Assembly: GCA_003990765.1 (NCBI GenBank)
Contig: RBNJ01000077.1
Location: forward strand, 1-43,327
Source: Jimgerdemannia flammicorona
Lineage: Eukaryota
Direction of reading: 5' to 3'
Length of the DNA stretch: 43,327 nucleotides
Shown: piece by piece, positions 3,513-38,667 of the stretch
Layout: each line of letters begins with the position of its first letter
Position numbering within the stretch: position 1 is the first letter of the stretch
Program-made: the position numbers and the translations under genes
The notes under the pieces: model-generated
What the model saw: the letters and a program-made list of their open reading frames with translations, nothing else
Told to the model about the DNA's origin: nothing
Database searches by the model: none

Positions 3513-3557
<45 letters not shown>

Positions 3558-4130: not shown

Positions 4131-4166
4131 CAGTCAAACTCATGAAGACCCCTGACAACAAACAAA

Positions 4167-11270: not shown

Positions 11271-11525
11271 TCACTCATTTTATATAAATAGAAAGAATTC
11301 TATACTATTTAAGAAATTACTACCTAATTAGAAAATTACTAAAATTATCTATATTATATGAGTAAAAGAATCTATATCTATTTCTAAAAAGAAATTATTA
11401 AATATTTTATTACTTTTGATAAAGTAACTAAAAACTTAAACTAAACTATATAGCTTCTCAATCTTATATATAACTTATCTCTATTAAGCTGGTATATTAT
11501 GATATATAATATTATCTCTATATAT

Positions 11526-11983: not shown

Positions 11984-11986
11984 ATT

Positions 11987-12003
11987 TGGTGCCTATTAGC
12001 TGG
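11987..12003 (+). promoter_or_regulatory. E1 primer-binding site
   Basis: TGGTGCCTATTAGCTGG, 3 nt after the LTR; near-identical to the E3 PBS. Cognate tRNA not assigned. Confidence 0.75.
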
Positions 12004-12103
12004 TGATTCAAGATGAATTCCTCACTTTCAAGCTGAACAATGAACAACTGTCACCACCTGAACAACCATATAAATTGAACCAAGATATCTAAACAAGATA
12101 GAT

Positions 12104-16098: not shown

Positions 16099-17281
16099 GA
16101 AGCTCTACTATAAAATGATCACCTATCTGGGACAGCAAAAGATACCCCAATATCTGGAAGAATAGATACAAATAATTATCAACAGAATATGGAAACAATT
16201 TGAAACTGATAGAGAAACATTAAAGAAAGAAAAGCTACTAGTTATATCAGAATATAAGAAGAAGCAAGCAATGAAATCAGTACATGAACTTGGCTATCTA
16301 GGAGGAACAAACATATATAATAAAGTAAGAAGAACAATATGGTGGCCAGGAATAGAGGAAGATATCAGACAATTTGTCAGATCCTGTGACAAATACCAGA
16401 AGCAGAAATAAGATCAATAAAACTAAGCCCCAGGATCAGCATACATAGAACCAATACTATTTGCCCATATTGCAATAGATGTAATTGGTCCTCTACCTCT
16501 GACTTTGACTGATAACTGATATATCATTGTCATTGTAGATCTTTTCACAAAATAGATAGAGGCAGGACCCCTCAAGGAAGCCAATGCACAGTCAATTGCT
16601 GATTTATTTTACAAAGAAATCATTTGCTGGTTCAAGACCTCAATACAAGTAACCACAGATAGAGGAACAGAATTTGTGAACCAGTTCTTTGAGGTTCTCT
16701 ACAAGAAGTATAAGATCCAGTACATTTAGACCATAGCATACTATCCCTAAGGAAATGGACAGGTAGAAAGGACTAATAAGACCCTCAAGAATGTTATCAC
16801 CAAGATCTGTGATAACTATGAAAACTGGGATCACTATTTGCCAATAGTATTATCTGCTCTCTGGGATATTTAATCACAAAGTACCCATTTCACCTCTCAA
16901 GAAATGCTGTTCAGAGAAGAAGATTCTCAAGAAACTCTATTATCTAATAGAGATACTGTATTGAAACATATAGATGGAGAGATACAGAGACTACACCAAA
17001 TCAGGAAGAAGGCTGAAGATTATATAACCAAGGTACAGGCACTATAATAGAATAATGTGGAAAGAGTTTACAAGCCTCTAGAGATTATTAAGATAGGAGA
17101 TAAAGTCCTTATATATTAGAATATAGTAAAAGCTTCATGGTCACAAAAACTGGAGCCCAAGTAAAAAGGATCTTACCTTGTGCAAGATATAAAAGGGACC
17201 ACCTTTTGGCTACAAAAACTCTCAAGCACAATCATCCCTACTATCTTCTACTGAAACTGACTCAAGAAGTATTATAGTTAA
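16091..17281 (+). pseudogene. E1 integrase, separate ORF in +1 frame
   Basis: ATG AAT AAG start; H..WWPG..C Zn-finger remnant, IAIDVIGPLP, VTTD(R)GTEF, GNGQVERTNKTLK; ends LKKYYS*. Confidence 0.85.
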
Positions 17282-17735
17282 TCAATAGAGCACTGCTATA
17301 GTCCTCAAGATCATCAGTACCATACAGCAAGCCATAGAAAGATAATAGTAAACTACTGAGCTGTCAGTTATAGAAGAATTCTTTGATAGTATACAGAGTA
17401 TAGTCCAGATATACCTATCATGAATCTTACACTTCAAGGTCTACTAGAACCAAACTGAGTTTCAAGAATACTTCAAGTTGGGACAACTACTAAACTTGTA
17501 ACTAGACATGGAAAAAGAAGACTAGACTAGAGAGTGTTAGCTCTCTTATACTCAGATTACAACTGTCAAACAAATCAACAAGATGTTTAAGGATGATGAG
17601 CCAGCTCTAGCCCATCTTCACAAAGTAGTTCCAGGAGACTTTAAATATATTAAGAGACAATACTGGGAGTATGTAATGATGCAGATTGAACAGTATAAAG
17701 AAATACAAATTGTAGAAGCTTGGGAGTTTGAATAG
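17274..17735 (+). pseudogene. E1 3' accessory ORF (~153 codons, unknown function)
   Basis: One frame whose stops all revert by a single transition: ..FQEYFKLGQLLNL..LSYTQITTVKQINKMFKDDEPALAHLHKVVPGDF.. Start ATA inferred to be a decayed ATG. Confidence 0.6.
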
Positions 17736-17762
17736 AATACTTCAGGGATGAATTATCTATTC

Positions 17763-17771
17763 AGGAGGAAG
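17763..17771 (+). promoter_or_regulatory. E1 polypurine tract
   Basis: AGGAGGAAG immediately before the 3' LTR; same as the E3 PPT. Confidence 0.75.
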
Positions 17772-17772
17772 T

Positions 17773-18246
17773 TGTGATAGTTGATCTGAATTAGGAATAT
17801 AAATCAGGAGAATTAGACATTTGATCATAGTACCTGAACCTAATTTCTGATATAGTATAGCCTTATAATAGCAGTCATTGTTATTTCACAACTATTAAAG
17901 TTTTTGTGAATGTTGAACTCTTTGCAGATATTGAAGATTTCACAGATGTTGAAGATTTTACAGATATTGAAAGATTTAACACTTGTGAAAAGTGACTCAT
18001 AATATAATTATAACTTAACCACTTTATAGCTAACAAACTTATATAAATAACCCAGTATCTTAGAGTGAATAAATCTCAGATTGAAATAGTTCAAAGCAAA
18101 GAGAAAGCAAAAGAACTAGTAGCCTGCAGGCAGATATACTTTGAACTCACTCCTGTATCTGAAGACTCTGTAGAGTCAAAGAAGATCAAGTTTTCAAGAT
18201 ACAGAAATCTGACATACTCCCAAGGTTAAGCATCTACTATATTATA
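17773..18246 (+). repeat. E1 3' LTR (474 bp)
   Basis: Direct repeat of the 5' LTR with one extra 18-bp CAGATGTTGAAGATTTCA-type unit. Confidence 0.95.
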
Positions 18247-18802
18247 ATATAAATTATCTAATACTAATTTAGTATAAAATAATTATTTGTAGAATTTGTA
18301 TCAAAGTTTATATTATATCTAAGTTAGTATAAGATCTGATATTAGATCTTATATCTAATATATATATATATATATATATTGTATATAAATATTTATACTA
18401 AGTACTTACTGAATATAAATTTCACATATACTATATATAAGAATCTTATTATAATAAATAATTTAGATTTTATATCCTTGTAGATTATAAAGTAAAGTTT
18501 AGCTTTTAGAGACAAATAATATGAAAAGGTAGAAAAAAGTATATTTTGTATAGAAGAAAGAACACTATATAGAAAGGTAGAAGAATAATATATTTGTAAA
18601 GTAGTTTTGAATTAGAAAAAATATATGAGTATTATAATAGTAATAAATAATATATAGATCATTATATCAAAAGTCTGACTAAGTTATATATCTCAAATTA
18701 TTAGTAGGAATATAAACATTATATTTTAGTATAAAGATTATATTCTAAATAAATAATATATTTCAATCAAATTTCAGTATAAGATAAAAATACTTTACTT
18801 AT

Positions 18803-20205
18803 TATAATGTGCCGGCTCAATGGAGGCAAATTACAAGATTGGGGGTTGATGTGGTTTGGCTTGAGCCCCTAGTTACTTTGTCAAAAGCAATAAAATATTC
18901 TTGGTGTTTAGCAGTATAATAGTCAAGATCTGGATACTATGCGAGTGGTTTCCTTTTTGGGATGGTTCTCTGAGTGTAGCAGCAATTTGTGTGTAAATGG
19001 ACTTCCTTCTTGGGTCAACTGGAAATGGTACAATTTGTGTAGTGTGAGTGGTTTCCTTCTTGAGTGACGATCTCTGATTTCTGCATAACAATCTGGCAAT
19101 TTAGTAGTTCTCCTTATGCAGTTCCTGCGTGATGATCTCTGTGTAGTGCAGCAGATTCCTTATGTGGGACATTCTGATAATTCAGCAGATAACTCGATTT
19201 GGCTCACTGGGAATGTAGGGCATGGGTTCTTCTTCCAGAATAAGACTGGCAGTGGGTAACTCAATAACTCAGGCTCACTGGGAACAATAAATAACTCGGA
19301 TGGCATGGATTCTTCCTAAATCAGTGGCTTTAACTGAGAATACTATTCAAATGGCATGAGTTCTTCCAAATCGGGCTCTTCTGAGGTTACGATGGCACAG
19401 ATTTCTTCTAAAACGGCGGCTTTAACTGGGAATACGATGGCACAGATTCTTCTGAATCGGCGGCTTCAACTGGGAATACAGTGGATAACTTGAAAATGGT
19501 GGATGGTATAGATTCTTCTGAATCGGCGGTCTTCTGGGAAATAACTCGGATTCTTGGCAAGTTACATCTAGACTGGCTTCGTTTGCATGAATGGATCACT
19601 GCAAAGTTGCATCAGAAACTGGCTTGGGCAAGGCAGCTTCCTCCGGGAATGTGGATAACTTGGAAATGGTGGCTTATTTCTTAAGTGGCAAATTACTCAA
19701 AAGGTGGCAAAGTTCTCCTTGAACTTAGGTGACAAATCTTCAGGCTTATCTGGCAAGTGAACTAATAGTTCCAAAGGCAGCGAAGTTCTCCTTGAACTTA
19801 GGCGACAAAATCAGCTTTGTATTGGAAAGTGGACCAGAGTGGGAATAAGGGGACCAATTGCTCAATCTTTAGAGGCTTCTTTGGTTTGCACTTCAATTTG
19901 GACTGAGGTTTATTCACTCTTATCTCTGGGGTAATTTATACAAGTTGGTTGCTATGTGGCTAACTATAGATCTGCTACTTATGGTAGATGTACAGAGTCT
20001 GTATGGTATACAGGACCTGTACAGTGTACAGAGTCTGTATGGTGTACAGAGTCTGTACAGATAAACAGACCCTTTCTGGTATATCTGGCTATTTATACAA
20101 TTTCTGCAGCAATGGTTGCTGGTTACTAAGCTGTGTGTTCATGTTATCTTTGTTTGCGTCATCTGATTAAGATATGATTCAGGTGGTATGTCTTGGCTTG
20201 TCACA
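18803..20205 (-). repeat. E2 3' LTR (1403 bp)
   Basis: Direct repeat of 24400-25727; internal ~43-bp and 18-bp tandem repeats. Confidence 0.95.
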
Positions 20206-20244
20206 TCAGCCCCCACTGAAGGGTAGTCTGTCCCAGACTATTCT

Positions 20245-23200
20245 TCAGTCATCATTCCAATAAGCATAGGCTGCTTCTGCATCTATACCTGTTCCATCAT
20301 CTTCATTATCTGTACTGAGGTCACTCCATTCTATGGGTTCTTCTTCTTCTTCGGGGAATAGGATTTTGACAGAGTTGATGATGCTCAAATAGGTAACAGG
20401 GTTCATTCCTTGAATATCATTCAGGGAGAATTGTGTCTGTGTCAGGGCTGTGACATTTCATTTGTAAATGGTATATAGTCTGTCTGCAGTAGTAGTGTCT
20501 CTTCTGGTCAGACCTGTGGTGTTCCTGATGTAGGTCTGTTCTGGGGCTGGGAGGTTCTGCAATTGTTCACCAATTGCATAATAGGCCTGCAGCTGGTGGA
20601 CTTGTAGTAGGCATCTGGCCAAGGTAAGATTTTCTTGGTGAACTTGAATCCTCTGAAGGGGGTTCCCATTGGCTTGGCCGAATTGAGGTAGGGGAACTAG
20701 TAGGGCTTGGAAGGAGCTGAGGACCAATGTCTGGAGGCGCTGATCAATCCTTTGGCTCATGATATAAGGGGGAAATATAGTTTGAGGTGATTGATATGTA
20801 CTGGTGTTCTCAGGGTTCGTCCATCCTTGGCGGGTTGCATGTCTGATGAGAGCTAGGATGTCTTCTCCCAAATTATAAATCTTGAGGATTCTTCTTCCTG
20901 GCTTCTTGGTCTGGCTTTTTCGGATCTGGCTTTTTCAGATCTGGCTTCAGTTGTCTCCTTTCTTCAAAGTATGCACTGCAACATCATGACTGAGATGAAT
21001 CTTCTGATGTCTGCAGTCCCGGCAGTCAGGGTGTCTCCCATGGTTGCAATATCCCATTGCTTGAAAATGGTGTTCCTGGCTGTTTATCTCCTGTTGTCTT
21101 GGGAATCGGTACCCATCTTGATCATAAGTGGGTGAAAGGGTAGACAGGGGATATATTTCTGTTCGGGTAAAGAAGCCTTGTCCTCTAAATCGACTTTGTA
21201 ACCTTATGGTGACTTCTTGAAAAATGGTAGACTGTGCAAGAGTAGTTGGGGGTTCTGGTCTCTGGGGTCTCTGCCTTTCTTGTTGGTCCAATAGATGACA
21301 CTGATAACAGTAGTCTCAGGGAGAGTGGAAGACCATTTGATGTAGACATCTCCCTAGCCGGAAAGCTTTCTCTTGGTGGGTTTCTTTCTTGGGGATAATG
21401 GTGATGGTACTGGGTCCTTCTTCTGTATTCCAGGGGTCATTGTCTTCAGGTGGTGTCCAGCGAGGGTCATCCCAGGGGATGAGTTCGGGGACTTCTTCTT
21501 CATCAGGTGCTTCTTGTTCAGGAACTTCTTGGTCAGGAGTTTCTTCTTCCTCGGATGATTCTTGACCCCAAATTGCTTGTACTTCTGTAGCTTCAGTTGC
21601 AGGGGTTTCTGGAATATGTCTGCATCTCTTCTTCTTCCTTCTGCACTCTGGGCAGGCTGTGCTAGGTGATTTCCTTGTTCCTATGATCTTGGAGAAGTGC
21701 TCGGGACACTTGTGTCTCTTGAGACATGTAGGGCATCCTTTGACTTCTCCTGCAATGGCTCCAATGGTGATGGGGATGGTATTCTTGGCCCACACATTGT
21801 CTTCTGGTCTGTCATCCATCAGATTGATTCAGGGATTGAGTCTGGGATCATTTCCATCTTCAGATTCTTCCTCTTCCTCTGTGGTAGATTCTTCACTGCT
21901 GGCATATTCTTCCTGAATAGTGACCTTCTTTTTCTTCTTCGATTGCTCATAGCTGGTCATCTTAACTCGGTACTTCTTGCCTCAGTAGTCAAACTTGAGT
22001 ACTTGTTGGCCAATATCAACAACTGCATTCATTTCTTTCATCCAGTTGGTGCCAAGAATCATGTCATAGGTGACAGCTTCAGTGACAACAGCTTTGGAAA
22101 TGGAGAACTGAATATGTCCAAGAGAGATGGTGATATTTCGTACTTCTCCAAGGGGTTGAGTTCGGGCTCCATCTGCTACTATGATGCTGAGGTTAGATGG
22201 TCCATCAATGGGCCATTGGAGGGTGTCCAAGAATCGTTTGGCAATGACACAGACAGCTGCTCCTGTATCTATGAGGATTTTCACTTTTTGTCCTCCAATG
22301 TCTCCATATAAGTAGGTGCTGACATGTCTTTCAGCTGCTTGGACAGGGATGGGAACTGGTTCTTGTTGCTGTGGGATTGGAACTCAGCCAGTGCTAGACC
22401 TAGTGGTTCTCAGTAATTTGTTTTGGACTCCAGCTGGTGTCAATTGCAAGAATTGTAGGAGAGGGACTTCTATCTTGGCTTCTTGAATCTTCTGCCAGGT
22501 TTCATTGTAAATGTCCCTAGGCATGGTTTTCAGAGTGTACTTCTTCTTAGGCTTTGGGGCAACAGATTCCTGTTCTTCTTGTTCCATTTCTTCATCTTCT
22601 GGTAGCAGCTCATTTGTCTCAGAGACAAAAGGTGAGGGGGTGAGGGGAGGTGTTTCTACTTGTCCCTCCTCATATTCTTCATCTTCTTCTTGGATAATTC
22701 TTCTGCTGATGTTCCTGGATGGTCTTCCTATAGGTCTCTTTCTCTTCTCTGCCAGATAGACTGTTTTTCGGGTTGTAACCTTGGTAGGGTACAAGTCTAG
22801 GTCACTGTAGTCTTCACTGTTGCTTGCTTCCTCGAAATCTTCAACAGGATGGGCCTCAGTCTTCTTGTACTGGGTGTCATTCCTTTGGTTTGGTGGTTCT
22901 GAGTCTCTTTGGTCACTTCTTTTGTTGTCACATTCAGTGGCATAGTGTCCGAATTGTCCACAGTAGAAGCATTGGACTTGGGCTCTGTCTCAGGCAGAGT
23001 ACCTTCTTTCTTCTTGCTGGTAATTCCTGTTATCTCTTGGTGGATAACCTTGGCTCCTCTGTGGTGGGTATCCTCTATGGTTTTGGTAGTCCCGATTTTC
23101 ACATGTAGTGAGTTTTTCAATCTGTCCAACCAATCAATCTAACTTGGAGCTGAGGTCTTAAATTTCGCTTCTGTCCTTCTTTCCTTCCTTGGCTGGCCTT

Positions 23201-24339
23201 CTTTCTTTGGTCCTTTCTTGCCCTTGAAGGAGTCCTTGCAGGGCCTTGACCAGGATATCTTCTTTATCTTCCTTCTTATCATGATCACTCCAGGTGGTTC
23301 CTTGCCTGACATCAAAGAATCCTTGGGCCACATCTACTTGTTCTTCAGACCTTCTGATGCCTAAGATGCGGACATGCTGGGCAATATTCAGGGGAATTCC
23401 ATTCATGAAGGTCATTGGACCTATGATGTCCTGGTTGGTGGCATTGAACCTGGTGGAATGCATTCTCTTCTGGATTCTTGTGAAGAAGGCTCTGGGTGAT
23501 TCTCCAAGATTCATCTTCATTCCCATGATAGATTCCTGAGCCTTGTAGCAGGTTTCATTTCCTGCATACTTCTCTATGAGCCAGTAGACCATGGCCTGAT
23601 ATTCTAGCTTATAGGAGACTGCTGCTTGTATCTGTCTTGCTATTTCTAAATCTGGGTTATTTGCTGTTCGATGGAAAATTCCTCTGGCTGGTTCTCTGAG
23701 CTGAGCTTTGTAGATGGCAATTTTTCTTTCATCTGAGAGATTCCTCAAGGCTGCGATTCCTTCAATTCCATCAAGGAATTCTCTGGGGTCTTCCTCCGGG
23801 TATTCTGCAAAGATTGGCAATGAGGTGGCCATTTCTTCATCACTTTCTTCTGATTCTGGTTCTGGTTCAGATTCTGATTCTGATTCGCTTCCTGAACTGT
23901 CACTAGAGATGGGGGTGCTTGAGTATCTTGAAGATGGTGTTCTGGTCCTTGGGTGAGGTAGAATAGGCCTAGGTATTCTTGTAGGAGCTACTTCTGATTC
24001 TGCAAGGGGTTGTGGTAGGGGTTCTATTGGTGAAATTGGTGGGACTGGTGTGGGGTGTCTGGCTGTGAAGTATTGGGCCCGTGTGATAAGGTCTTCTAGT
24101 TCTTGTGCAAGTTCTCTGAAATCTCTAGCAGAGCTGCCTATATTGTCTGGTTGATCTGGTTGGTCTGGTTGAGGATTTTGGGCTGTACTGCCTCCTGCTT
24201 CTGGTTGGGATCCTTCTGATGCTGGGTAGTTGGCAAGCCTTGAGGTAATTACTTCTCTTCCTGTCCAAATGCTAGTGATGACTAGTTCTCCTGTAGTGGC
24301 GGAAGTTAGTGTTTTATCGAATGTATCCAGTTTGACTAT
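20245..24339 (-). pseudogene. E2 single polyprotein frame (~1365 codons): Gag - CCHC knuckle - aspartic protease - Cys/His clusters - accessory domain
   Basis: Track ORFs starting 23832, 22794, 22284, 21819, 21291 and 20871 share one frame. Motifs LPIFAEYPEEDPREFL, CFYCGQFGHYATEC, ILIDTGA..ILGTNWM. The stops examined revert to CGA/CAA. Start ATA at 24339 is inferred. Confidence 0.8.
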
Positions 24340-24380
24340 GGGTTCTTGTGAGCTGAAAAGTCACGTCGATTTTAAAATCT

Positions 24381-24397
24381 TCCCAGTTGAGCCCCCA
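24381..24397 (-). promoter_or_regulatory. E2 primer-binding site, tRNA-Pro type
   Basis: TGGGGGCTCAACTGGGA, 2 nt after the 5' LTR; resembles the canonical tRNA-Pro PBS TGGGGGCTCGTCCGGGA. Confidence 0.8.
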
Positions 24398-24399
24398 AA

Positions 24400-25727
24400 T
24401 GTAACATGCTGGCTCAATGGAGGCAAATTACAAGGTTGGGGGTTGATGTGGTTTGGCTTGAGCCCCCAGTTACTTTGTCAAAAGCAACAAAATGTTCTTG
24501 GTGTTTAGCAGTATAATAGTCAAGATCTGGATACTATGCAAGTGGTTTCCTTTTTGGGACGATTCTCTGGGTGTAGTGGCAATTTGTATGTGAATGGACT
24601 TCCTTCTTGGGTTAACTGGGAATGGTACAATTTGTGTAGTGTGAGCAGTTTCCTTCTTGAGTGACGATCTCTGATTTCTGCATGATGATCTGACAATTTA
24701 GCAGTTCTTCTTATGTAGTTCCTGTGTGATGATCTCTGTGTAGTGCAGCGGATTCCTTATGTGGGATGTTCTGATAATTTGGCGGATAACTCGATTTGGC
24801 TCACTGGGAATGTAGGGTGCGAGTTCTTCTTCCAGAATAAGACTGGTGGTGGGTAACTCAATAACTCAGGCTTACTGGGAATAACAAATAACTCGGATGG
24901 CATGGATTCTTCCTAAATCAGTGGCTTTAACTGGGAATACTATTCAAATGGTGCGAGTTCTTCTGAATTGGGCTCTTCTGGGGATACGATGGCGTGGATT
25001 TCTTCTGAATCGGTGGCTTTAACTGGGAATATGATGGCATGGATTCTTCTGAATCGGTGGCTTCAACTGGGAATACAGCAGATAACTTGAAAACGGCAGA
25101 TGGCGTGGATTCTCCTGAATCGGCGGTCTTCTGGGAAATAACTCAGATTCTTGGCAAGTTATGTCTAGACTGGCTTCGTTTGCATGAACGGATCACTCTG
25201 AAGTTGCATCAGAAACTGGCTTGGGCAAGGCGGCTTTCTCTGGAAATGCAGATAACTTAGAAACAGCGGCTTATTCCTTAAGCAGCAAATTACTCAAAAG
25301 GCAGTGAAGTTCTCCTTGAACTTAGGTGGCAAAATCAGCTTTGTATCGGAAAGTGGACCAGAGTGGGAATAAGGGGACCAATTGCTCAATCTTTAGAGGC
25401 TTCTTTGGTTTGCACTTCAATTCGGACTGAGGTTTATTCACTCTTGTCTCTGGGGTAATTTATACAAGTTGGTTGCTATGTAGCTAACTAGATCTGCTAC
25501 TTATAGCAGGTGTACAGAGTCTGTATGGTGTACAGGACCTGTACAGTATACAGAGTCTGTATGGTATATAGAGTCTGTATAGGTAAACAGACCCTTTCTG
25601 GTATGTCTGGCTATTTATACAATTTTCGCAGCAATGGTTACTGGTTACTAAGCTGTGTGTTCACATCATCTTTGTTTGTGTCATCTGGTTAAGATATGAT
25701 TCAGGTGGTATGTCTTGGCTTGTCACA
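24400..25727 (-). repeat. E2 5' LTR (1328 bp)
   Basis: TG..CA termini; lacks one ~73-bp internal duplication unit present in the other LTR. Confidence 0.95.
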
Positions 25728-26159
25728 TTATAGACAAATTGTCAATTATCTCAATATTTTAAAATATAGCAATATATATAGTCTGTTTATATATTTATAG
25801 CCATTTGATATTTAGCTATAAAAGACAAAAAAATTGAGTAGTACTTATTAGCTAGTGATAATAATAGTTGCTTATCAGCAGATATAAATAAAATTTAGAA
25901 ATCTTGAATTAATTATGGTATAATTCTCTCTATTTTTAAGTATCTAACTTTTATCTATACTAGATCAGTTACTATATAAATTCTCATACTTATATTATAG
26001 TTTCTGAGATATTACTAAAAGCTTTCTAGAAGTCAGAATAGATATTATGAAATTTGTTTTATTTTTAGTTATTATAATTTATTAAATATAGTTTTGAATA
26101 AATAATAATAATAATAATATAATTATTAAAATTAAAATTTGAAAATTATTTATTACTAC

Positions 26160-26414
26160 TAGTGCTCTCAAATAAAATTAAATTAATTTAAATTGAATCA
26201 AATTGAGAGTCATTTGATTTGAATCAAATTGAGAGTTCAATTTGAATCCTATTTTTCAAAATATAATAACTTGATGAAAATATGTCCAAAATTAATAAGC
26301 TAAAGATTATTAAATTTGGACATATTTTTATTAAGTTATTATATTTTGAAAAATAGAATTCAAATTAAATCACAAATTGAATTGGATCTTTGATTTGATT
26401 TATTGGGAGTACTA
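26160..26414. mobile_element. Foldback MITE, probably hAT superfamily
   Basis: TIRs TAGTGCTCTCAAATAAA / TTTATTGGGAGTACTA; the whole element is an imperfect palindrome. 8-bp flanks ATTACTAC / ATTGCTAC (7 of 8 match). Confidence 0.8.
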
Positions 26415-26497
26415 ATTGCTACTATTATTATAATATATAGATTAGGGTATACTAGTATAGTAGGTATAAAGACTATAAATAAATAAAAAGATTATAT

Positions 26498-28097
26498 TAT
26501 AACAGTAATCTCAAATAGTGACATTATCACAGGTAACAGTCTTTCTTTATAAGCCATCAGATTGGAGTATAAGAAGATTATATAGTATGACTCACCTAGG
26601 CTATAAGATGAGTAATGATGACAAACTATAAGTTATAATAACTACAAGATAGAGATCTCAAGAAATATAAAAAAAAGACTAAGAAATCACAGTAGTAGTA
26701 ATTTAAACAAGACTTACAAAATTCTGAAATAGTTTGAAAGACTCACTATAAATAAAATACCTGCTGCTTATCAAACTACAAAGTCCAGAAACTATCAAGG
26801 CTTCTCAGTTTAAGAAAGGATGTTCTAAGACATCAAGAGAACCATAAGAACTTGTACTAGAAGAATTCTTAGCCTCAACTTAGATACTGATAACTCTTAT
26901 CACTTTACTCTCTACTACTATGAAATAGAGACAATGTCACTACTACTACTGAATACCTCTGGATGTGGCAGAAATATGAAATAGAAAATCTTCTTTACTA
27001 GGAATTCCCTTAGGCCAGTCTCTAAGAGATACAAGATACCACCTCTATGGATATATACAAATTGAGAGTAGCTAAAAAGATCCATTAGATCTTCAGACAA
27101 GTACCTTGGTCAATTTCCAACTTGGAGTATACCAGAGTCTCAGACTTCAAAAAATTGTCAGCTTACTATATAGATATACTAAAGGCTATAGTGGCTACAA
27201 AAGCCCAATTTACTATCATTCTCAAAAGTAATAAGATAGAAGAGTTCTAGAATCTCATTCTTGAGAATAATCTAGATCAATTTCTATAAGGATTAATCTC
27301 AGTATTCCAAGGCCTCAGTATCTAGGTCAGACCCTCTCAAGATCTCACCTTTATCTCCTACTTTGTGGAGAAAAATATTATAGATTAAAGAGCCCCTGAT
27401 CTTCTTTTTGCTACTATTAAATATGATGATATCACTAGTGATAACATTATCCTGCTAATCAATACATACAAAACAAATAAAATAGAAATGTTTACTGACC
27501 TTATTTCCTTCAAGAACATTCTATCCCCAATCTCTAGCCTTAATGACAGTGATAAAGACAAAGCCTCCAGGATTCAGAACATTCTACTCTAATTTGTTTA
27601 TATAACTATTTGTTTAAATACTTGAATATTCTGGTATCCTGACCTTATGTAACTATCAGAAATTATTTCAGCATTCTGATCTTATATAACTAATTATATA
27701 GGTACTCAAATTTGTACTTACAATCTGAAGTTTTTTATATTCAAATATCTTATTTAGTTATTGAATTTTATATTTAGCTTTATATCTTAGTAATTATTAA
27801 ATTATATTTTGTATAAATACTTCTCTCATTTCCTTTCAAATAAAGTCAGTATTAAAACACTCAAGTATTCAAGTATCCAACTACTCAAGAGTACAGAAGT
27901 TCTAATTCTCTACTCAATTTCATATAAGCAAATCTAAGAGACAATAAAACAGTTTAAAGATATGAAGTTTGAGGACTATAAGACCTTAGAAAGGTACTCC
28001 AATAGAACTTACTTATAAGAAACTTATGGTTGGTCTAAGAGATATATCTTGAAGAGAATCTGACATACTTGGAAGACTTAATACTCTCTATATAATA
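26498..28097 (+). mobile_element. Solo LTR of the E3 family, older and heavily mutated; carries the LTR ORF remnant at 26757-27592
   Basis: Colinear with the reverse complement of 28540-30067 from end to end; ATAT on both flanks. Confidence 0.85.
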
Positions 28098-28445
28098 ATA
28101 TATAGAGATTGAGTTAGAGATAGATTTTGTACTATACTAGTTTCTCCTTGAGATTCTTCAAATAGTAGATAGTTGACTAGTCTTAAGCTAATTACTTCTC
28201 TTTTTATCTAGATACTAGTGATAATTCTGTCTTTAGTATATAGTAGCTAAGATTAGTACTATATTAAAGATATCTAGATTGTCTGAATTCTATAATCTAA
28301 AAAGTTATATAGATTTATAATCTTTCTAGTTGAGCTCTCAAATATAATATTCTTAACTCAATAGAGGCAAATTATAAGGTTAGGAGTTTGTATAGTTTGG
28401 CTTAAGTCTTCAATTACTTTGTTAAAAAGTAATAAAATATTCTAT
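28098..28445 (-). mobile_element. Highly decayed fragment of an E2-family element (leader, PBS and U5 end)
   Basis: Matches ~24170-24500, e.g. CTAGTTGAGCTCTCAAATATAA vs CCAGTTGAGCCCCCAAATGTAA, and CTCAATAGAGGCAAATTATAAGG vs CTCAATGGAGGCAAATTACAAGG. Confidence 0.75.
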
Positions 28446-28539
28446 AATTTCTGATATCTTTATTATTATTTAGTAGTATAAGGATAATTTTTATATAAAA
28501 AGCAATTAATTTTCTTATTAGAACAGTTCTTGTATATAG

Positions 28540-30067
28540 TGTCATATAGTGGTCACTGAGTCCTTCAAATATGCCAGATTCTTTTCAAGGTATATCTCTT
28601 AGACTAACTCAAGTTTGTTATAAGCAAGTTCTTATTGAAGTGCCTTTCCAAGATCTTATAGTCCTCAAACTTCTTATCTTTAACTGTCTTGTTATCTCTT
28701 AAATTGCTTGCAAGGAAGTATGTGTATTGCACTGAGTTGACTGACTTTATTTCAGAGGAAATAAGAGGGATATTTATACAAATATAATTCAATAATTGCT
28801 AAGATATAAAGCTAAATATAAATTTCAATAACTAAAACTACTAAGTTCCAGGGTCAGCACTGTTGGTTGTACAGGTTCAGGATACTGATATAATTTAGTG
28901 TCACATCAGAATACCAGTGCTGGAACAATTTCGTATCACCTCAGAATGCCAGTACTGGTATTATCCGATGTTACATCAAAATACCAGTACTGGTATTATT
29001 CAGTGTAATAAAGAACTTAGAGCAGAAAGTTCAGGACCATAGGGGCTTCATCCTTGTCATCAGAGGTCAGGATATCTTCGAAAGAGATGAGATCTATGAA
29101 TTCGTCATTTTTACATGCTTTGATGTCACATGGGATGACATCATTGCTGATAACATCATCACATTTGGTGACAGAAAGGAGGTCTGGGGCTCTTCAGTCT
29201 ATGAGGTTCTCTTCTACAAAATAGGAGTCAAATATAGGATCTTGGGGAGATCTAACCTGGATGCTTGGGCCTTAGAATACTGAGATCAATCCTTGCAGGA
29301 ATTGGTCTGAGTTGTCTTGGAGGATGGAGTGCCAGAAGTTTTCTACTTCATCACTATTGAGAGTGATAGTGGACTGGGCTTCTGTAGCCACTCTGGCTTC
29401 TAGTGCATTGATTGGCAGGATGACAGATCTCTGAAATCTGAGACTCTAACATACTCCAAGTTGGGGATCAACCATGGTGCATGCCTGAAGATCTGATGGA
29501 TCTTCTTAGCTGTTCTTGTTTCGTGTATATCCATGGGAGTGGCATCTTGTAGCTCTTGAGTGCTGGCCTGTAGGAACTCCCAGCAGAGGAGGTTTCCTAT
29601 TTCATACTCCTACCACATTTGGAGGCATTTGGTAGCAATAGTGATCCTTGTTTCCATTTCATGGCAGTAGAGGATAAAGTGATAGTAATTTGCAGTACTC
29701 AGGTTGACACTAGGAGTCCTTCTTGAGTGGGTCCTCATGACTCTTCTGATGTCTTGGAACATCCTTTTCTCAACTGAGATACCTTGGTGATTCCTTGATC
29801 TTGAGATTTGGTGGGCAGCAGGCATTTCATTTATAGTAAGTCTTTGAGCTATTTTGGAATTGGTGGGTCTTGTTGGTTGCTGCTACTGCAGTTCCTTGAT
29901 CCTTCTTTTATATTCCTCAAGATACTCATACTGTGGTTACAATGACTCACAGTTGGTCATCATTGCTCATCTCATATACTATATGATCTCCTTGTGCTTT
30001 GATCTGATGGCTTGTGAGGAAAGGCTGTCTTCTGTACTGATGTTATCATTCAGAGATCACCATTACA
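28540..30067 (-). repeat. E3 3' LTR (1528 bp)
   Basis: TGTAAT...TGACA on the minus strand; direct repeat of 37266-38667. Confidence 0.92.
29017..29825 (-). pseudogene. LTR-encoded accessory ORF (~270 codons; second copy at 37744-38553)
   Basis: The two LTR copies complement each other's stops and one frameshift: MPAAHQ..MWQEYEIGNLL..ETRTAKKIHQIFRH..LEYVRVSDF..acidic tail..NFLL*. May extend ~45 codons upstream. Confidence 0.7.
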
Positions 30068-31505
30068 TCTTCCTCCTAAATAAGGATCTTCCTGAGCATC
30101 CTTATTCATTGGTTTAGTCCTGAAAAATTTGCTGATCCCATAACCTCTGGTAAGGGGTTGAAAAGTGGTATTTATGGGCTAGTGTCTTCTCTTTATATTT
30201 TGGCATAATGGTAAAGGATTGCTCCCTTCATATAGAGCAAGGGCCTGATTCTGATCTTGACCAATCAGTTGATGGTTCAAACTCTTCTGACTTCGAAAGT
30301 CTCACAGATGAGTAGTTACCAGTGCTGTATCCCTTAGAGAATGATCCAGACAGATAGCCTGCTGGTCCCAGGACATGCTGTTACAATTCATGAACTAGAA
30401 CCTTGTGGGTGGTCATCACGTTTTGCTTCTCTTGTATAGGTTTGTGATACTTCTTGAGTCTGTTCTTATATACCATGGTAGGCAGTATAGTCTCTGAGAT
30501 TTTTCTAAACCAGAAGGTAGTTCCCTTAATATCTTGTATGTAGAAGAGTCCTTTCTATTTGGGCTCCAGTTTTCATGACTATGAGGCTTCTACCATATTT
30601 CAATACAGTAGAACCTTTTTTCTGATTCAGATGAGTTCTAGGGTCTTGTAATTCTTTTCTGCATTCTTTCTTATCAGTGCTTGTGACTTAGTGATATAAT
30701 CTTTAGCCTTCTTTCTGATTTGGTGTAGTCTCCAGATTTCTGCATCAACCTATCTCCAAGTTAGGTCTAGATTTGTAGCTGAGGTTCCATCAGAATCTTC
30801 TTCTCTGAAGAGCAGCTCTCTTGGGGTAAAGTGTGTGCTCTGTGACCATATATCTTGTAGAACAGAGAGGGTGGTTGGGAGATAGTTATCCCAATTCTCA
30901 TATGTCTCTGAGATCTTTGCTAGGATGTTCTTAAGGGTCTTGTTGGTTCTCTCTGTCTGTCCATTTTCTTGAGGGTGGTACACAGTGGTCTTGATGTGCT
31001 AGATCTTGTATTTCTGATACATTATCTCATAGAATCTATTGACAAATTCCATGCCATGGTCTGTTGTGATTTGCTTCAGTGTCTTATAGCAGTAGATAAT
31101 TTCTTGATGCAGGAAGTTGGCTATAAAGAGAATATTGGCTTCTTGTAATGCTCCTGCCTCTATCTATTTGGTGAAGAGGTCTATAATAACTATAATATAG
31201 CAGTTTCCTGATAGTGTTACTGATAGTGGTCCAATGATATCCATTATGATGTGGTGGAAGGAGATAGGCTCAATTCTTGATGACCTGGATACCTGGTCTT
31301 ACTGATCTTATTTCTGTTTTTGGCATTTGTCACACCCTTTGACAAATTGGTGCAAGTCTTCTTCCATCTTGGGCCACCACATGATTCTTCTTACCTTGTC
31401 ATATGTGTTGGTTCCTCCTAAGTGTCCTTGCTCATGTACTTCCTTCATTACTTGATACTTCTTGTGTTTGGATATTACTAGCTTTCCTCTTTTTCTGAGT
31501 GTAGT

Positions 31506-31508
<3 letters not shown>

Positions 31509-31541
<33 letters not shown>

Positions 31542-32993
31542 GGCTGTAGCCTCATTTATTAACTATCTATAACATGCCACATATCCTCATACAACATCAG
31601 TAGCCCCATTCCACCCCAATCTCAACCCACCTTCACCCTCACCTAGCCTTGCACCTTTAGGGTATGAGTTGTGACCTCACTGCCCAAGTAACTAGATCTT
31701 CCTACCCAGCCTGCCCCACCTAGTAGATATGGGTTATGAGCTCCAACCACCTCAAGTACTTGGCATCTAGTGCACCTGACCTACCTCTATTAGTGCCTCC
31801 TGTCTTGTCCATCTAGCCCATCTTGCCTGCCCATATTGCCTATATTGCCCATGTTGCCATCTTGCCTGTCTTGCCCATCTTGCCCATCTTGCCCATCTTG
31901 CCCATCTTGCCTGTCTGTATTGCCCATATCCCATATTACCCATATTACCTATGTTGCCTGTGTTGCCTGTATTGCCCATTTTGCCCATTTTGCCCATCTT
32001 GCCCATGTCACCTGTCTTGCCTGTCTTGTCCACCTGTGTTACCCATATTGCCCATATTGCCATCTTGCTGTCTTGCCTGTCTTACCCATCTTGCCCATCT
32101 TACCCATCTTGCCTGTCTTGCTCACCTGTGTTGCCTGTGTTGCCCATGTTGCCCATATTGCCTGTGTTGCCCATATTACCCATATTGCCTGTTTTGTCTA
32201 TTTTGCCCATTTTGCCTATATCACCTGTCTTGCCATCTGCCCATCTTGCCCATGTCACCCATCTTGCCATCTTGTCTGTCTTGCCCATCTTACCCATCTT
32301 GCCTACCCATGTTGCCTATGTTGCCTGTATTGCCCATATTGCCTATGTTGCCTGTGTTACCCATATTGCTTATGTTGCCCATATTGCCTGTATTGCCCAC
32401 CCATGTTGTCTGTATTGTCCATGTTACCCATTTTGCCCGTTTTGCCCATTTTGCCCATCTTGCCCATGTCACCTGTCTTGCCATCTGTCTATCTTGCCCA
32501 TGTTGCCCATCTTGCCGTCTTGCCATCTTGCTATCTTGCCCATCTTGCCCATCTTGCCCATCTTGCCCATCTTGCCCATCTTGCCCATCTTGCCTGTCTT
32601 GCCTATCTTACCCATGTTGCCCATCCTGTCATCTTGCCCTCTTGTCCATCTTGCCCATCTTGCCTGTCTTGCCCATCTTGCCCATCTTACCCACCAGTAT
32701 TGCCCATGTTGCCCATATTGCCCATATTGCCCATGTTGCCTGTGTTGCCTGCCCGTGTTACCCATGTTGCCCATGTTGCTTACTCATGTTGCCCATGTTG
32801 CCTGTGTTGCCTGTTTTGCCCATTTTGCCTATATCGCATGTCTTGCCATCTGCCCATCTTGCCCATGTCACCTGTCTTGCCATCTTGCCATCTTGCCTAT
32901 CTTGTCTGCCCGTGTTGCCCATATTGCCCGTATTGCCTGTGTTGCCCCTGTCTATGTGGCTTAGCTCGCTCTGAGTGGTTTGAGCAAAAGAAG
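31509..32993 (-). mobile_element. Poly(A)-tailed non-autonomous retroposon (SINE-like) built around a 9-bp satellite
   Basis: 15-bp TSD TCTGAGTGTAGTGTT at 31494-31508 and 32994-33008; ~30-nt poly(A); AATAAA (minus strand, 31555-31560) 16 nt before the tail. Confidence 0.9.
31800..32950. repeat. 9-bp tandem array TTGCCCATC / TTGCCTGTG variants
   Basis: Well over 100 degenerate 8-9 bp units. CA, TG and rare CG variants at one position point to an ancestral TTGCCCGTS. Confidence 0.95.
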
Positions 32994-33120
32994 TCTGAGT
33001 GTAGTGTTGTCTAATTCAAACTGTTTCCAAGTTCAGTTGATAATGGTGATTGTCCAGGGTTCAAGGTGGTTGGGCATCTTTCGCTGCCCAAGGTAGCTGA
33101 TTAATCCATAGTATAGCTCC

Positions 33121-36100
33121 TTATTCATGTTGAATAGTCTTGATGGGGGTGTTTCAGAGTATCCTTAAGAGTGCATCAGCATTGGTGTTGGTCTTTCCTG
33201 AGCAGTACTTGATAGTACAGTAATACTCTTGCAGCCTGTAGATCCATCTGACATATATTCCTTTGGGGTTCAGAGTGTGGAATAGCCAGGCAAGAGTGGA
33301 GTGGTCTGTTTGAATGGTAAAGTGTTTCCTGGCTAGGTAGTAGTGGAACTTGTCTACTGCCCAGACTACTGCCAAGCATTCAAGCTTGCATGACTTATAG
33401 TTCTGTTCTGCTCTGTGGATATCTCGGCTTGCATAGGAGATGACATATTTATGTCCATCTTTCTTCTGAGCTAGGACTGCTCCAAGTCCTATGGCACTCG
33501 CATCTATCTGCAGAATGAATTCTAGGTTCCAATCTGGTCTTCTGAGGATAGGTGCTTGAGTCAACCTGGTCTTAAGTTTATTAAAGGTTTCTTAGTACTC
33601 CTTGGTCCATTCAAATTTGGTTTCCTTCTTCAGTAGCTCATAGATAGGTGCTGCAATGTTGGAGTATCCTTTGATGAACCTTCTGTAGTAGCTGGCCAGT
33701 CCAAGGAAGGCATGGACTTCTGTAGTTGTTCTGGGTCTCAGGTAAGCTACAACAGCCTCAATCTTCATGAGATTTGTGTGGATTCCAGTCTGGTTGATGA
33801 GGTGTCCTAGGTAGGCAATTTCTTGAGCTACAAACTTGTATTTCTTGGGCTTAATATAAAGGCCATACTCCTTGAGCTTCTTGAGAGCTAGCTATATGTG
33901 ATTGATATATTCCCATGCAGTATTGCTGAAGATGATCACATCATCAACATAGACAAAGAGCCATTTTCCAATCTCATTGCTGAAGACTCTGTTCATCATT
34001 CACTGGAAACTTGCTGGGGTATTGTACATTCCGAATAGTATTTGCAGGTAGATATAGGTAGCATCAGGTATAATGAAGGCTAATTTCTCACTGGCATCTT
34101 GAGTGAGACCAATCTGATGGAAGCCTGAGAACAGATCCAAGGTGGTGTAGTATTTGGCTTCACTTCCAAGGGTGGTAAGGATTTCTTGAATATTTGGCAA
34201 GGGCTGTCTATCCTTCTTGGTGATGGCATTGAGCTTCCTGTAGTCAATACAGAGTCTTGGTACAAACTCTCCAGGTTTGCTTCCTTTCTTCAGGGCAAGG
34301 ACAATGGGTGAAGCCCAGGGGCTGATAGCTTGCTTGATGATTCTGGCTTCTTCCATTTCCTTGAGTTCTGCTCGCAGCCACTCTCTGTAGGCAGGTGGTA
34401 TGGGTCTGGCTTTCTGGTAGATGGGCTTGGTATCACCAGTATCAACTTTGTGGTAGTACTTGGGTTCTTGATTGTGGATATCCCTAAAGTCTGTAGCAAG
34501 TACTCCTTCATTCTGGTGCAGAATCTTGAGAAGTTGTTTCTCCAGGGGAAAGTTTTCTCCAATAGTGTATGTGTGCTTGTTCTGGTTCTTGTCTTTCTTG
34601 TATTCAAGTTTGGTAATCTTGGTAGTGGCATAGGCTCCTCTTCTGGTAGATCCAAAGCCTTGTTCTCCTCTCTTGGTCTTGATGAGTTTGATGGCTTCAA
34701 TGATCTTGGGCTTCTTGATTTCGTGGATCAGCATCTGGCCAATCCTGTCATGCTTCTTGACTTCGAAGGGGGTGGTGGGGTTGTGATTTCTGACTATGAG
34801 GAAGATCTCACCAGTGTAATCAGGGTCAATTACTCCTCCTTTAACTGACATTTCACTTTTGGTCAGACTATTCCTGGTCTTGGTGATTCTGGTATGGTTC
34901 TCTAGCAGCTTGACTCCAATTCCAGTACCAAGTAGGGTGGTGGTCTGTGGTTCAAGGGTAGTATCTTGAATGCTGGCAAGGTCCATTCCTATGGCTCCTT
35001 CAGTCTTGTATTCTGGGATCTTGGCTTCAGGGTGAAACTTCTTGACCTTGAGGGTCATGTCTGATTCTTATTCCTCCTCATCATTGCTGTCAGCCTGAAG
35101 CTCTGGGGGCTGGTCATCTTCTTTGGCTTTCCTTTTTGCTTTGGCAGCTTCTTGCTCATGTTTCTGTTGGCAGATTTTCCTGACTTCACTGATACAGGAC
35201 CAGCAGTCATTCAGGTGTTCAGAGCAGTACATCCTAGTATCATGGGGTATCTTTCTTGAGGGGCATAGCCATCGATGATCTTGTTGTACTACTGCTTATC
35301 TGTGAGCTTGGGTGTCTTGTTCTTATTCTTGTTCACCAAGTGCATGAAGACCTCTGTGTCTTCTTCATCTCCTTCCTCCATGTCTGGTAGAACTCCCTTG
35401 TGGACATTGATAGAGACTCATACCTTTCTCCCTCTATAGTTGATCTGTATCTTCTGGGCATTGAGGTCAATGATGGCCTTGGCCTTGTGAAGCCATTGAT
35501 TGTCAATGAGGATGTCATAGTTGGTGGCACTTGTGACAATCACATCTACTGAGATGGTAGCTCCTCCTATCTTGATGGAGACTTCTCAGATTTTGCCAAG
35601 GGGGGTAGCTTGTATACCATCTACTGTAATATAGACCATCTTGGTGGACTCTTCAATATCCCAGCCTAGGCAGTCAATTGCCTTCTTGCTCATGAGGCAT
35701 CCTCCAGCACCAGTATCAATGATGGCATTAAAGATATAGTCTTTGATCTGACATGGAGTATAGGCTGATATCTTGCACTGGTCTTCAAATTCTTTACCTG
35801 AGTTCTCAGATTCTTCCTGTGCATTGTGAGCTTCTACAATCTTATACTCTTGATTCTTGGCAGTAGTTGCAAGTCCTACTCTCAACTGCTGTCTGAAGGC
35901 AGGGACTTCAGCTAGCTGTCCAAAAGTGGCATTGACCTTCTATTCCTTGAGGTCCTTGTAGATATCATACTGGTGAATCTTGGTCTTGTGCAGCTTCTGT
36001 TCCTTCTTACTTTCACTTTCTCCTGAGACTGGAGTAGTGCCTTCAATGATTTGGCAGGTAGCTTCATCTAACTCCATGTCTTGATCAATCTCCTTGGATT

Positions 36101-37145
36101 GGGTCTTGCTTTGAATAGTAACAGCTGGGGTCTTCTTTGGTCTTCCAACTGGCTTGCTTTTGCTCTTCTTGTCATAGGGCTTAGACTGGGTTCTGGTACC
36201 TTCAGTAGCAGGGTAGAATTCAAGCTCCTTGTAGTATTCTTCATCATCAGTATCACCAATCTCCTCGATGACTACTACATTGGTTTGTTCTCTAGTTCTG
36301 CTAGTATTACTTGGTTGGACTTTGCATCTTGTTTCGGTCATACAATTCTTTACATAGTGGCCTTCTTCTCTACATCTGAAGCATGTGATATTGCATTCTT
36401 CTATAGCAGCTGCAAATCTCTGCACTGGTCTCCTGTTGGTACTTCAGACTTCTCTAACAATATCACCAAGGTGTGCAGTCATCTTGGCAAACTGCTTGGC
36501 AAGTTCCTCCACTGGGTCAGCTTTGGCTGTCTTGGGGGTAGGTGGGGTTGGTTGTTTGTTTACAACTGTGGCAGGTATGATACTAGTTGGCTTTGATGGC
36601 TCCATCTTGATGCCAGTTATTTTCTCCATTGAGTGTTTGGCAGAGTGTCTGGCAGTCCAATATCTCTGTGCAAAGACTACTTTCTAATCAAGGGTCAGTA
36701 TAGCTGGGGTAGACCAGATTGCTAGGGCAATTTCAGGGTGAACTTCTTTGAGGAAGGTTGAATCCGCTATTTGTTCCTTGAGGTGGTCATCATAGTCAGC
36801 CAAGACAATCTGGTAGCAGATTTAGGTATAGAATGAGTTGGGATCTTCACTAAGTCCCTGGCAGATAGTATTGAGTTGATCCTTGAGAGCTTGCTTGATC
36901 TCTTCAGTATAATATATTGTTCTGAGGAAGGCCTTTATGTTGGCAAGTTTGGCTGTACCAGTATCAGCAATGGTGGCTGCATTGAACTTGTCTCTGGCAG
37001 GTCCTCTGAGACTGACTGGTAGAAGGGCCAATTGTGCATTCACACCAAGGGCTCGTATGGTGGCAAATTGTTCAAAGTCTTCAATAAAGGTCAGGATTGA
37101 TTCTTCAGTAGTATATCTATAGAATGTGGGGGAGCGCATTTCCAT
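33121..37145 (-). pseudogene. E3 gag-pol (Gag, CCHC, protease, dUTPase, RT, RNase H)
   Basis: CFRCREEGHYVKNC; IIDTGAGG; dUTPase GAIGMDL..GGVIDPDYTGEI..RGEQGFGST (34645-35058); RT SPWASP..RLCIDYRKLN..LDLFSGFHQI..YVDD; RH LQIDAS..LECLAVVW..TDH..NADAL. Confidence 0.93.
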
Positions 37146-37245
37146 CTTGTCTTGAATTCTTACAGGGGTGACTCTTGTAGTCAGAGTAGTTGTTGTGGGG
37201 GTTGTTTGTTTTTCAGCTTGAAAGTGAGGGATTTGTCTTGAATCA

Positions 37246-37262
37246 CCAGCCAATGGGCACCA
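37246..37262 (-). promoter_or_regulatory. E3 primer-binding site
   Basis: TGGTGCCCATTGGCTGG, 3 nt after the 5' LTR. Confidence 0.75.
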
Positions 37263-37265
37263 AGT

Positions 37266-38667
37266 TGTCATGTAGTGGTCACTGAGTCCTTCAAATACAT
37301 CAGATTCTCTTCAAGGTATATCTCTTAGACTAACTCAAGTTTGTTATAAGCAAGTTCTTATTGGAGTATCTTCCCAAGGTTTTATAGTCCTCAAACTTCT
37401 TATCTTTAACTATCTTGTTATCTCTTAGATTGCTTGCAAGAAAGTGTATATATTGTACTGAGTTGACTGACTTTATTTCAGAGGAAATAAGAGAGGTATT
37501 TATATAAAATATAATTCAATGGTTGCTAAGATATAAAGCTAAATATAAATTCCAATAACTAAAACTACTAAGTTCCAGGGTCAGCACTGATGGTTGTACA
37601 GGTTCAGGATGTTGGTATAATTCAGTATCACATCAGAATACTGATGCTGGAATAATTTTGTATCACCTCAGAATATCAGTACTGGCATTATCCAGTGTTA
37701 TATCAAAATACCGGTGCTGGCATTATTCAGTATAACAAAGAACTTAGAGCAGAAAGTTCAGGACCATGGGGGCTTCATCCTCATTATCAGAGGTCAGGAT
37801 ATCTTCAAAGGAGATGAGATCTGTGAATTCATCATTTTCGCATACTTCGATATCACATGGGATGATGTCATTGCCAATGATGTCATTACATTCAGTGGCA
37901 GGAAGGAGGTCTGGGGTTCTCCAGTCTATGAGGTTCTCTTCCACAAAATAGGGGACAAATGTGGGGTCTTGGAGAGATCTAACCTAAATGCTTGGGCCTT
38001 GGAATACTAAGATCAATTCTTGCAGGAATTGGTCTGGGTTGTCTTGGAGGATGGGGTGCTAGAAGTCTTCTACTTCATCACTATTGAGGGTGATAGTGGA
38101 CTGGGCTTCTGTAGCCACCCTGACTTCTAGTGCATTGATATGGTGGGATGATAGGTCTCTGAAATCTGAGACTCTAATATACTCCAAGTTGGGGATCGAC
38201 TAAGGTGTATGCCTGAAGATCTGATGGATCTTCTTAGCTGTTCTTGTTTCATGTATATCCATGAGAGTGGTATCTTGTAGCTCTTGAGTGCTGGCCTGTG
38301 GGAACTCCTGGCAGAGGAGGTTTCTTATTTCATACTCCTGCTACATTTGGAGGTATTCGGTAGCAATGGTGATCCTTGTTTCCATTTTATAGTGGTAGAG
38401 GATAAAGTGATAGAGATCTGTAGTACCCAGATTAACACTAGGAGTCCTTCTTGAGCAGGTCCTCATGGCTCTTCTGATGTCTTGGAATATCTTTTCCTCA
38501 ACTGAGATACCTTGGTGATTCCTTGACCTTGAGGTTTGGCAGACAGCAGATATTTTGTTTGTGGTAAGTCTTTGAGCTATTTTGGGATTGGTGGGTCTTA
38601 TTGGTTGCTGCTACTGCAGTTTCTTGATCCTTCTTTTATATTCCTCAAGATACTCATACTATGGCTA
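37266..38667 (-). repeat. E3 5' LTR, truncated at its outer end
   Basis: Matches 28540-~29939; homology is lost after GATACTCATACTATGGCTA. Confidence 0.9.

Follow-up and report, generated by a model that had tools for sequence, protein, structure and literature searches.

The stretch of DNA analysed here, called the window in what follows, is the 43,327-nucleotide contig RBNJ01000077.1 of Jimgerdemannia flammicorona (assembly GCA_003990765.1), read on the forward strand. Bases 10,000-40,500 hold three long terminal repeat (LTR) retrotransposons, E1, E2 and E3, and one fragment, in AT-enriched DNA whose GC content goes down to 27-38%. Our subject is the open reading frame (ORF) at the 3' end of E2, which we named ORFx, together with the stretches, or tails, that follow the integrase (IN) in E1 and E3 and could be its counterparts. 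The differences within the LTR pairs of the elements are nearly all transitions (transitions to transversions 44:0, 112:3 and 135:4), and CpA sites account for 56-60% of these transition differences; therefore, the damage is of the type of repeat-induced point mutation (RIP). The premise of an earlier annotation made from the letters of the window, referred to here as the sequence-only reading, that the stops interrupting these frames derive from transitions, stands on the same ratios.

E2 (18805..25728, minus strand; LTRs at 18805-20206 and 24402-25728, minus strand) is a non-autonomous element made up of gag (CCHC), protease (PR), a linker region and the tail ORF. Pfam gives zf-CCHC and PR only, and neither reverse transcriptase (RT) nor IN is present in any frame of the element. 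Gag, PR, linker and tail are inscribed within a single reading frame of 1372 codons (20245..24360, minus strand) that contains 11 stops, 10 TGA and 1 TAA, with the final stop counted. The last part of it is ORFx (20245..20760, minus strand), which has 171 codons plus the stop and one internal TGA, and ends about 40 nt ahead of the 3' LTR. The start codon of ORFx and the TGA that closes the last remaining IN codons overlap in an ATGA arrangement (20757..20760, minus strand). Two fragments, at 28142-28443 (minus strand) and 10780-10875 (plus strand), resemble the E2 LTR end and leader with 70-83% identity, which suggests further remnants of the E2 family beside E3 and upstream of E1.

When 1.84 billion representative proteins were searched exhaustively with HMMER, the E2 tail had five matches, with 53-74% identity and no named protein among them, and a profile search found 16 relatives; a word-based search for the tail within long proteins gave no match. 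Four of the 16 relatives, with lengths of 169-183 aa, span 97-99% of the query. Three of these four start at the same Met and the other, P0037 (183 aa), starts 19 residues upstream, and all of them end in the conserved acidic-aromatic C-terminus. The DNA and the context of the relatives were obtained from three metagenome contigs, L001, L002 and L003. For E2, L001 and L002 compared pairwise, the ratio of nonsynonymous to synonymous substitution rates (dN/dS) was 0.10-0.20 by the Nei-Gojobori method; with L003 as one member, dS was saturated in all three pairs, and over all six pairs the proportion of synonymous differences (pS) was 0.58-0.81 versus 0.17-0.26 for the nonsynonymous ones (pN). 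This is the outcome of purifying selection in the E2 family for the dN/dS check that the sequence-only reading had proposed. The start codon overlaps the stop of the upstream ORF as ATGA in E2, L001 and L002, and the corresponding tetranucleotide in L003 is ATAA. The tail frame is closed by stops located 21 (L001) and 8 (L002) codons upstream of the ATG; therefore, the tail is a separate ORF. Judged from these sequence comparisons, ORFx of E2 is a real gene under purifying selection. RNAalifold on the four sequences upstream of the ATGA gave -6.5 kcal/mol with a compensatory change in 1 of 14 pairs, such that no convincing conserved structure was seen. A literature search of limited coverage, which implies no unpublished status, found no description of this ORF.

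The anatomy of the family is clarified by contig L003, where dUTPase, RVT_1, RNaseH and IN are followed by the tail; therefore, in its complete form the E2 family is built like E1 and E3, the tail coming behind the integrase. Compared with L003, E2 has lost 3,405 bp carrying dUTPase, RT, RNaseH and IN between two GGATGGA 7-mers (L003 nt 384 and 3789), and the junction GGATGGA is found at 20820..20826 (minus strand). The deletion joins the linker that follows PR to an out-of-frame reading of the last IN codons, which puts the tail in frame with gag-PR, and this in-frame fusion of ORFx is a product of chance. The sequence-only reading had taken E3 for the element that lost RT and integrase, and the retention of the tail by such an element as a sign of its importance. 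E3 carries both domains according to Pfam; the element devoid of them is E2, which arose via a single deletion, and the retention of its tail is no evidence of importance. The dUTPase of L003 (nt 597-968) lies upstream of RT, and the contig begins after the protease. A Cys/His-rich linker between protease and dUTPase, in the E2 frame at about 21500-22000 (minus strand), is conserved with L003 nt 3-400 and has no Pfam match.

ORFx encodes a protein of about 170 aa whose body has a net charge of +2 to +6 and whose last 40 residues, with a net charge of -16 to -18, end in an aromatic motif. The AlphaFold2 model obtained from 15 sequences shows helices between residues 34 and 134 and low-confidence N- and C-terminal ends, with a predicted local distance difference test (pLDDT) of 59; the model of the E3 tail, with a pLDDT of 41.9, is too low for interpretation. 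A Pfam scan revealed no family for ORFx, a search against PDB sequences returned a weak coiled-coil match only, and the fold search in the ESM Atlas gave scores <=0.87, which are below the useful range. No stretch of transmembrane strength was seen in the near-full-length proteins P0033, P0034, P0036 and P0037 (169-183 aa), where the maximum 19-residue Kyte-Doolittle mean was 0.94-1.36. No frame of E1, E2 or E3 matched the chromodomain PF00385 at E<=0.01, and neither the integrase ORFs of L003 and L001 nor the ORFx proteins matched it at E<=0.001. The ORFx protein is uncharacterised and not env-like; it looks soluble and helical and has an acidic tail, and for the E2 family the absence of a Pfam match and of membrane-spanning stretches and the helical model agree with the soluble helical accessory protein proposed from the letters.

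ORFx also diverges fast. Within the E2 family the identity of IN is 88-99% versus 55-67% for ORFx. In a comparison covering L001 nt 1100-2297, the DNA of L001 and L002 is 93-100% identical up to about nt 1760 and then 55-80% identical inside ORFx, whose ATG is at 1790. The identity drops near the start codon of ORFx; therefore, a recombination breakpoint is placed there, with the 3' module swapped between near-identical elements. The identity of IN between the E2 family and E1 or E3 is 33-39% and, as ORFx diverges far faster than IN, a true relative of ORFx in those elements is expected at the edge of detection.

E1 (11525..18248, plus strand) is a full Ty3/gypsy element with gag, PR, dUTPase, RT, RNaseH and IN that has suffered heavy transition damage; its LTRs (about 11525-11985 and 17772-18248, plus strand) are the pair with 44 transitions and 0 transversions. 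E3 (28540..38667, minus strand), also a full Ty3/gypsy element and related to E1, has 1.4-kb LTRs at 28540-29939 and 37266-38667 (minus strand). Pfam finds PR, dUTPase, RVT_1, RNaseH and integrase in E1, and the same domains plus zf-CCHC in E3, and the domain order is identical in the two. Both belong to Ty3/gypsy (Metaviridae) by their Pfam PR, RVT_1, RT_RNaseH, Integrase_H2C2 and rve domains together with the paired LTRs. The dUTPase is located between protease and RT, at about 14200-14600 in E1 and 34650-35030 in E3 (Pfam E 5e-21 to 7e-27, a range that includes L003). Homology between E1 and E3 runs from gag to the end of the integrase, with IN 61% identical (213/350), and stops in tblastn and blastn at window 17272-17275, that is, exactly at the start of the E1 tail. 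The tail frame of E1 (17274..17735, plus strand) overlaps the IN stop TAA (17279-17281), its first codon, ATA (17274), being positioned 5 nt ahead of this stop.

In E3 the tail ORF sits inside the LTR, as had been read from the letters, yet downstream of IN, as the LTR begins upstream of the tail. Its copy in the 5' LTR (37744..38553, minus strand) keeps its frame throughout the 270 codons and has, with the final one counted, 5 stops, which is the fewest among the six frames; the copy in the 3' LTR (29017..29825, minus strand) is in the same frame as IN and is broken by a 1-nt deletion near 29413. Another copy of the E3 family (26536..28078, plus strand; tail frame 26759-27592), the most degraded of all, aligns for about 120 nt past the LTR into the internal sequence of E3; therefore, it is the truncated 3' end of a second copy and not the solo LTR it had been called. 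The motif strings quoted by the sequence-only reading are present in E1 at 17274-17735 (plus strand), in E2 at 20245-20760 (minus strand) and in E3 at 29017-29825 and 37744-38553 (minus strand), but the third copy starts at 26759 (plus strand), the 26757 given for it being out of frame. Among the sequencing runs listed, no RNA run carries words of the window; a single soil-metagenome DNA run contains a small share of them, and its short contigs span both tails with differences that are mainly transitions.

Two repeat regions were also observed in E3. Between RNaseH and integrase, window 31796-32953 is a 1.1-kb degenerate array of 9-nt tandem repeats with units like CCCATCTTG, which translates as GKM/GNM/GQD repeats and gives spurious Pfam 'Collagen' matches. 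Unique sequence and about 33 consecutive A residues come after the array, directly before the integrase, and the array therefore looks like an inserted, polyadenylated sequence. In the LTR, just past the stop of the ORF, window 28880-29010 (minus strand) contains repeated units of about 40 nt with the palindrome CCAGTACTGG, which may be promoter or enhancer repeats of the unique 3' region (U3).

We then considered whether the tails of the three elements are one gene. The sequence-only reading had placed a single protein family at three different positions; however, the position is one, just after the integrase and before the 3' LTR, as seen in the dUTPase-RT-RNaseH-IN-tail order of L003, and in E3 the same position falls inside the LTR. 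A hidden Markov model (HMM) built from the relatives outside the window gave the E3 tails as its first four non-E2 matches among 576 six-frame chunks (6.3 bits, E 0.24). When E2 was included in the model, E3 ranked first and E1 second, and a model of E2 plus E3 put the E1 tail on top of 420 chunks with 6.7 bits versus 1.6 for the next; scores of 6-7 bits correspond to E 0.13-0.24. Smith-Waterman, phmmer, hmmsearch and hhalign all chose one common register. In locus-specific shuffles of the chunks, 60 runs each, the tail chunks came top in 2/60 and 1/60 and the observed scores were never reached.

Other results weigh against this kinship. Smith-Waterman comparison with 500 shuffles gave z 2.3 for E1-E2 (21/500), 2.5 for E1-E3 (14/500) and 2.9 for E2-E3 (6/500), and tblastn at E<=1e-3 gave no tail-to-tail match; in fact, the tails of E1 and E3 share no DNA or tblastn similarity despite the 61% identity of their integrases. 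In hhalign the E2 family was not significantly similar to the E3 family (P 0.11, probability 0.5%) or to E1 (P 0.049, probability 1.1%). Shuffled databases hit at least 6.2 bits in 5/20 runs with the model of relatives outside the window, which gave the E1 tail 0.9 bits only, and reached maxima of 6.7 bits in 6/20 runs with the E2 plus E3 model. In the retrieval of one family by the HMM of another, advanced earlier as a check, the E3 tails came first in rank with 6.3 bits, a score within the shuffle noise, and the E1 tail was hardly scored. Scoring tolerant to RIP brought no gain (E1 z 1.4, 11/100; the two E3 copies, E3a z 2.0, 4/100, and E3b z 2.1, 1/100; the third copy z 0.3, 36/100). In the tail frame of E1, 10 of the 154 codons are stops, a number not below that of the other frames; the linker of E3 between IN and LTR (29906-30443, 179 codons) has neither stop shortage nor coding signal; and relative to IN the tail frame is +1 in E1 and -1 in the E2 family. 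To these are added the low confidence of the ORFx structure model and the fact that both the mode of expression and the function of ORFx are ones that we infer. A search with IN plus tail of E3 found distant gypsy polyproteins only, with 21-37% identity, and the five gypsy polyproteins examined (P0002, P0003, P0005, P0007 and P0022) had no motif-like tail. A phmmer match of the E1 tail at 25326-26225 (minus strand; E 0.079) falls on the edge of the E2 5' LTR and its AT-rich flank; the stretch beside the other E2 LTR copy was unmatched and both regions are unalignable beyond the LTR, so the match was read as chance.

These results could also be explained if the gene existed only in the E2 family and the likeness of E1 and E3 came by chance in degraded sequence of skewed composition, their tails being unrelated or, in E1, non-coding stretches. 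Such an explanation, which we hold to be a serious but somewhat doubtful one, is favored by hhalign P values of 0.05-0.11, by HMM scores within the shuffle range, by RIP-tolerant z values of 0.3-2.1, by the lack of stop shortage in the E1 tail and the lack of E1-E3 tail similarity, and by the unequal lengths of the tails, of about 150 codons in E1 versus about 480 from the IN end to the ORF stop in E3. It does not account well for the best non-self matches falling exactly on the position-equivalent tails in one register by four methods, nor for shuffled tail chunks that stayed below the observed score in 60 runs each; in addition, a loss of similarity is expected at 33-39% IN identity given the rates of ORFx and IN within the family. 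The claim of one family common to the three elements, as first made, does not hold at the level of profile-profile comparison, and position and rank leave it evenly poised. From sequence and position, we consider the homology of the E3 tail to ORFx fairly probable and that of the E1 tail slightly favored, whereas for a single ORFx gene common to E1, E2 and E3 the balance appears to be even.

It could also be argued that the tail is a C-terminal extension of the integrase, reached by frameshift or read-through, and serves for targeting instead of the chromodomain that chromoviruses carry. The E3 tail is in the IN frame, the tail frame remains open ahead of the ATG in E2, L003, P0028, P0037 and P0039, and the chromodomain is absent; nevertheless, the tail-frame stops of L001 and L002 would interrupt such an extension 21 and 8 codons upstream of the ATG, and among the 16 profile hits and the window ORF nine called proteins start at this Met, the E2 Met being the same codon. 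Moreover, the apparent upstream conservation is an out-of-frame reading of the conserved integrase end, no canonical slippery heptamer was seen by eye before the stop, and the E3 linker is without coding signal, such that we regard this extension as improbable. A decayed env-like ORF3 of the errantivirus or Athila type shares with ORFx the position after pol and nothing more; with a protein of merely about 170 aa, no Pfam match, a helical model and hydropathy maxima of 0.94-1.36 in the four near-full-length proteins, this origin appears extremely unlikely.

Based on the above, we propose that ORFx is a post-integrase accessory gene of a dUTPase-bearing Ty3/gypsy lineage in a fungus-like host with RIP-type mutation, and to the explanation as a whole, with its parts on E1 and E3 included, we give about even odds. 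According to it, the tails of E1 and E3 would be diverged, RIP-degraded counterparts of ORFx at the same position, with an even chance of being so, and in E3 the start of U3 would have shifted upstream such that the gene now lies within the LTR. By analogy with known systems, ORFx could be translated off the full-length RNA by a re-start at the ATGA once pol terminates. Its protein might work as an adaptor whose acidic-aromatic tail recruits a host factor; in this lineage without chromodomain, the likeliest roles would be to transactivate the LTR or to tether the integration complex, with any single function having a minor chance at best. The C-terminal end presumably resembles acidic activation motifs. 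A bolder and rather unlikely version sees ORFx as a regulator in the style of retroviruses, in which a small basic helical core binds LTR or RNA of the element, the acidic-aromatic end serves for activation or as an adaptor, re-initiation at the ATGA keeps expression low, and the whole is a mobile recombining module; if true, it would account for ORFx in three diverged families and inside the U3 of E3.

The accessory genes sag of mouse mammary tumour virus, nef of human immunodeficiency virus and Tas/Bet of foamy viruses lie in U3 or overlap it, and foamy Tas has an acidic activating end. ORFx is like them a small non-structural ORF located 3' of the core genes and, in E3, within U3; host and element class differ, however, and no relation of sequence or fold is expected. 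Coupled termination-reinitiation takes place at AUGA in the victoriviruses. For the hypovirus CHV1, the same coupling is reported at UAAUG (PMC2699510). In both, as in ORFx, the AUG of the downstream ORF shares nucleotides with the stop that ends the long ORF preceding it, and the hosts are filamentous fungi; they are, however, RNA viruses and ORFx is a retrotransposon gene, with no conserved upstream RNA structure found.

Extra genes are also known from other LTR retrotransposons. Among them brtn is antisense, unlike ORFx, which is sense. In Botrytis, brtn is described as the gene that BcGypsy1/Boty has in addition (Porquier et al. 2021, bioRxiv 10.1101/2021.04.13.439636); likened by description only, it resembles ORFx in being a supplementary gene of a fungal gypsy element whose host has RIP. 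Novikova et al. 2010 (PMC2864245) describe fungal Gypsy elements that carry a dUTPase, and 'additional ORFs' whose function is unknown; they are alike in the Ty3/gypsy affiliation, in the dUTPase, which in some lies between PR and RT, and in the extra ORF that some carry, but these elements are mostly chromodomain-bearing, whereas E1, E2 and E3 are without chromodomain, a comparison made by description only. In bdelloid rotifers, diverse retroelements have the ORF3s of LTR retrotransposons in common (Rodriguez et al. 2017, PMC5408684); these ORF3s resemble ORFx as third ORFs after pol, in dUTPase lineages, with a module shared or exchanged between lineages. According to that source, the rotifer ORF3s are env-like or encode a GDSL esterase or a DEDDy exonuclease, whereas ORFx shows neither an enzymatic nor a membrane signature and matches no known family. 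We regard ORFx as a new and unnamed representative of the extra ORFs, a kind already known; it may coincide with one of the listed fungal additional ORFs, with which it was compared by description only.

Outside the retrotransposons, window 1710-9484 contains three tandem paralogous units with spacings of about 2.5 and 3.6 kb, 64-87% identity and a GC content of about 50%. In each unit, the plus strand contains long open frames (226-314 aa), with no Pfam match at E<=0.001.

At present, the value of these results lies in a useful annotation and in a correction of the anatomy of the elements, the shared family not being demonstrated. Extra genes of LTR retrotransposons are where retrovirus-like abilities, such as entry, regulation and targeting, are gained, and few non-env examples have a known role. 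ORFx is a tractable case, being compact and under selection, with near-full-length natural copies, a testable stop-start overlap with pol and recombinational exchange. If the tails of E1 and E3 are true relatives, ORFx would be a hallmark, old and evolving fast, of a gypsy clade that has the dUTPase and lacks the chromodomain.

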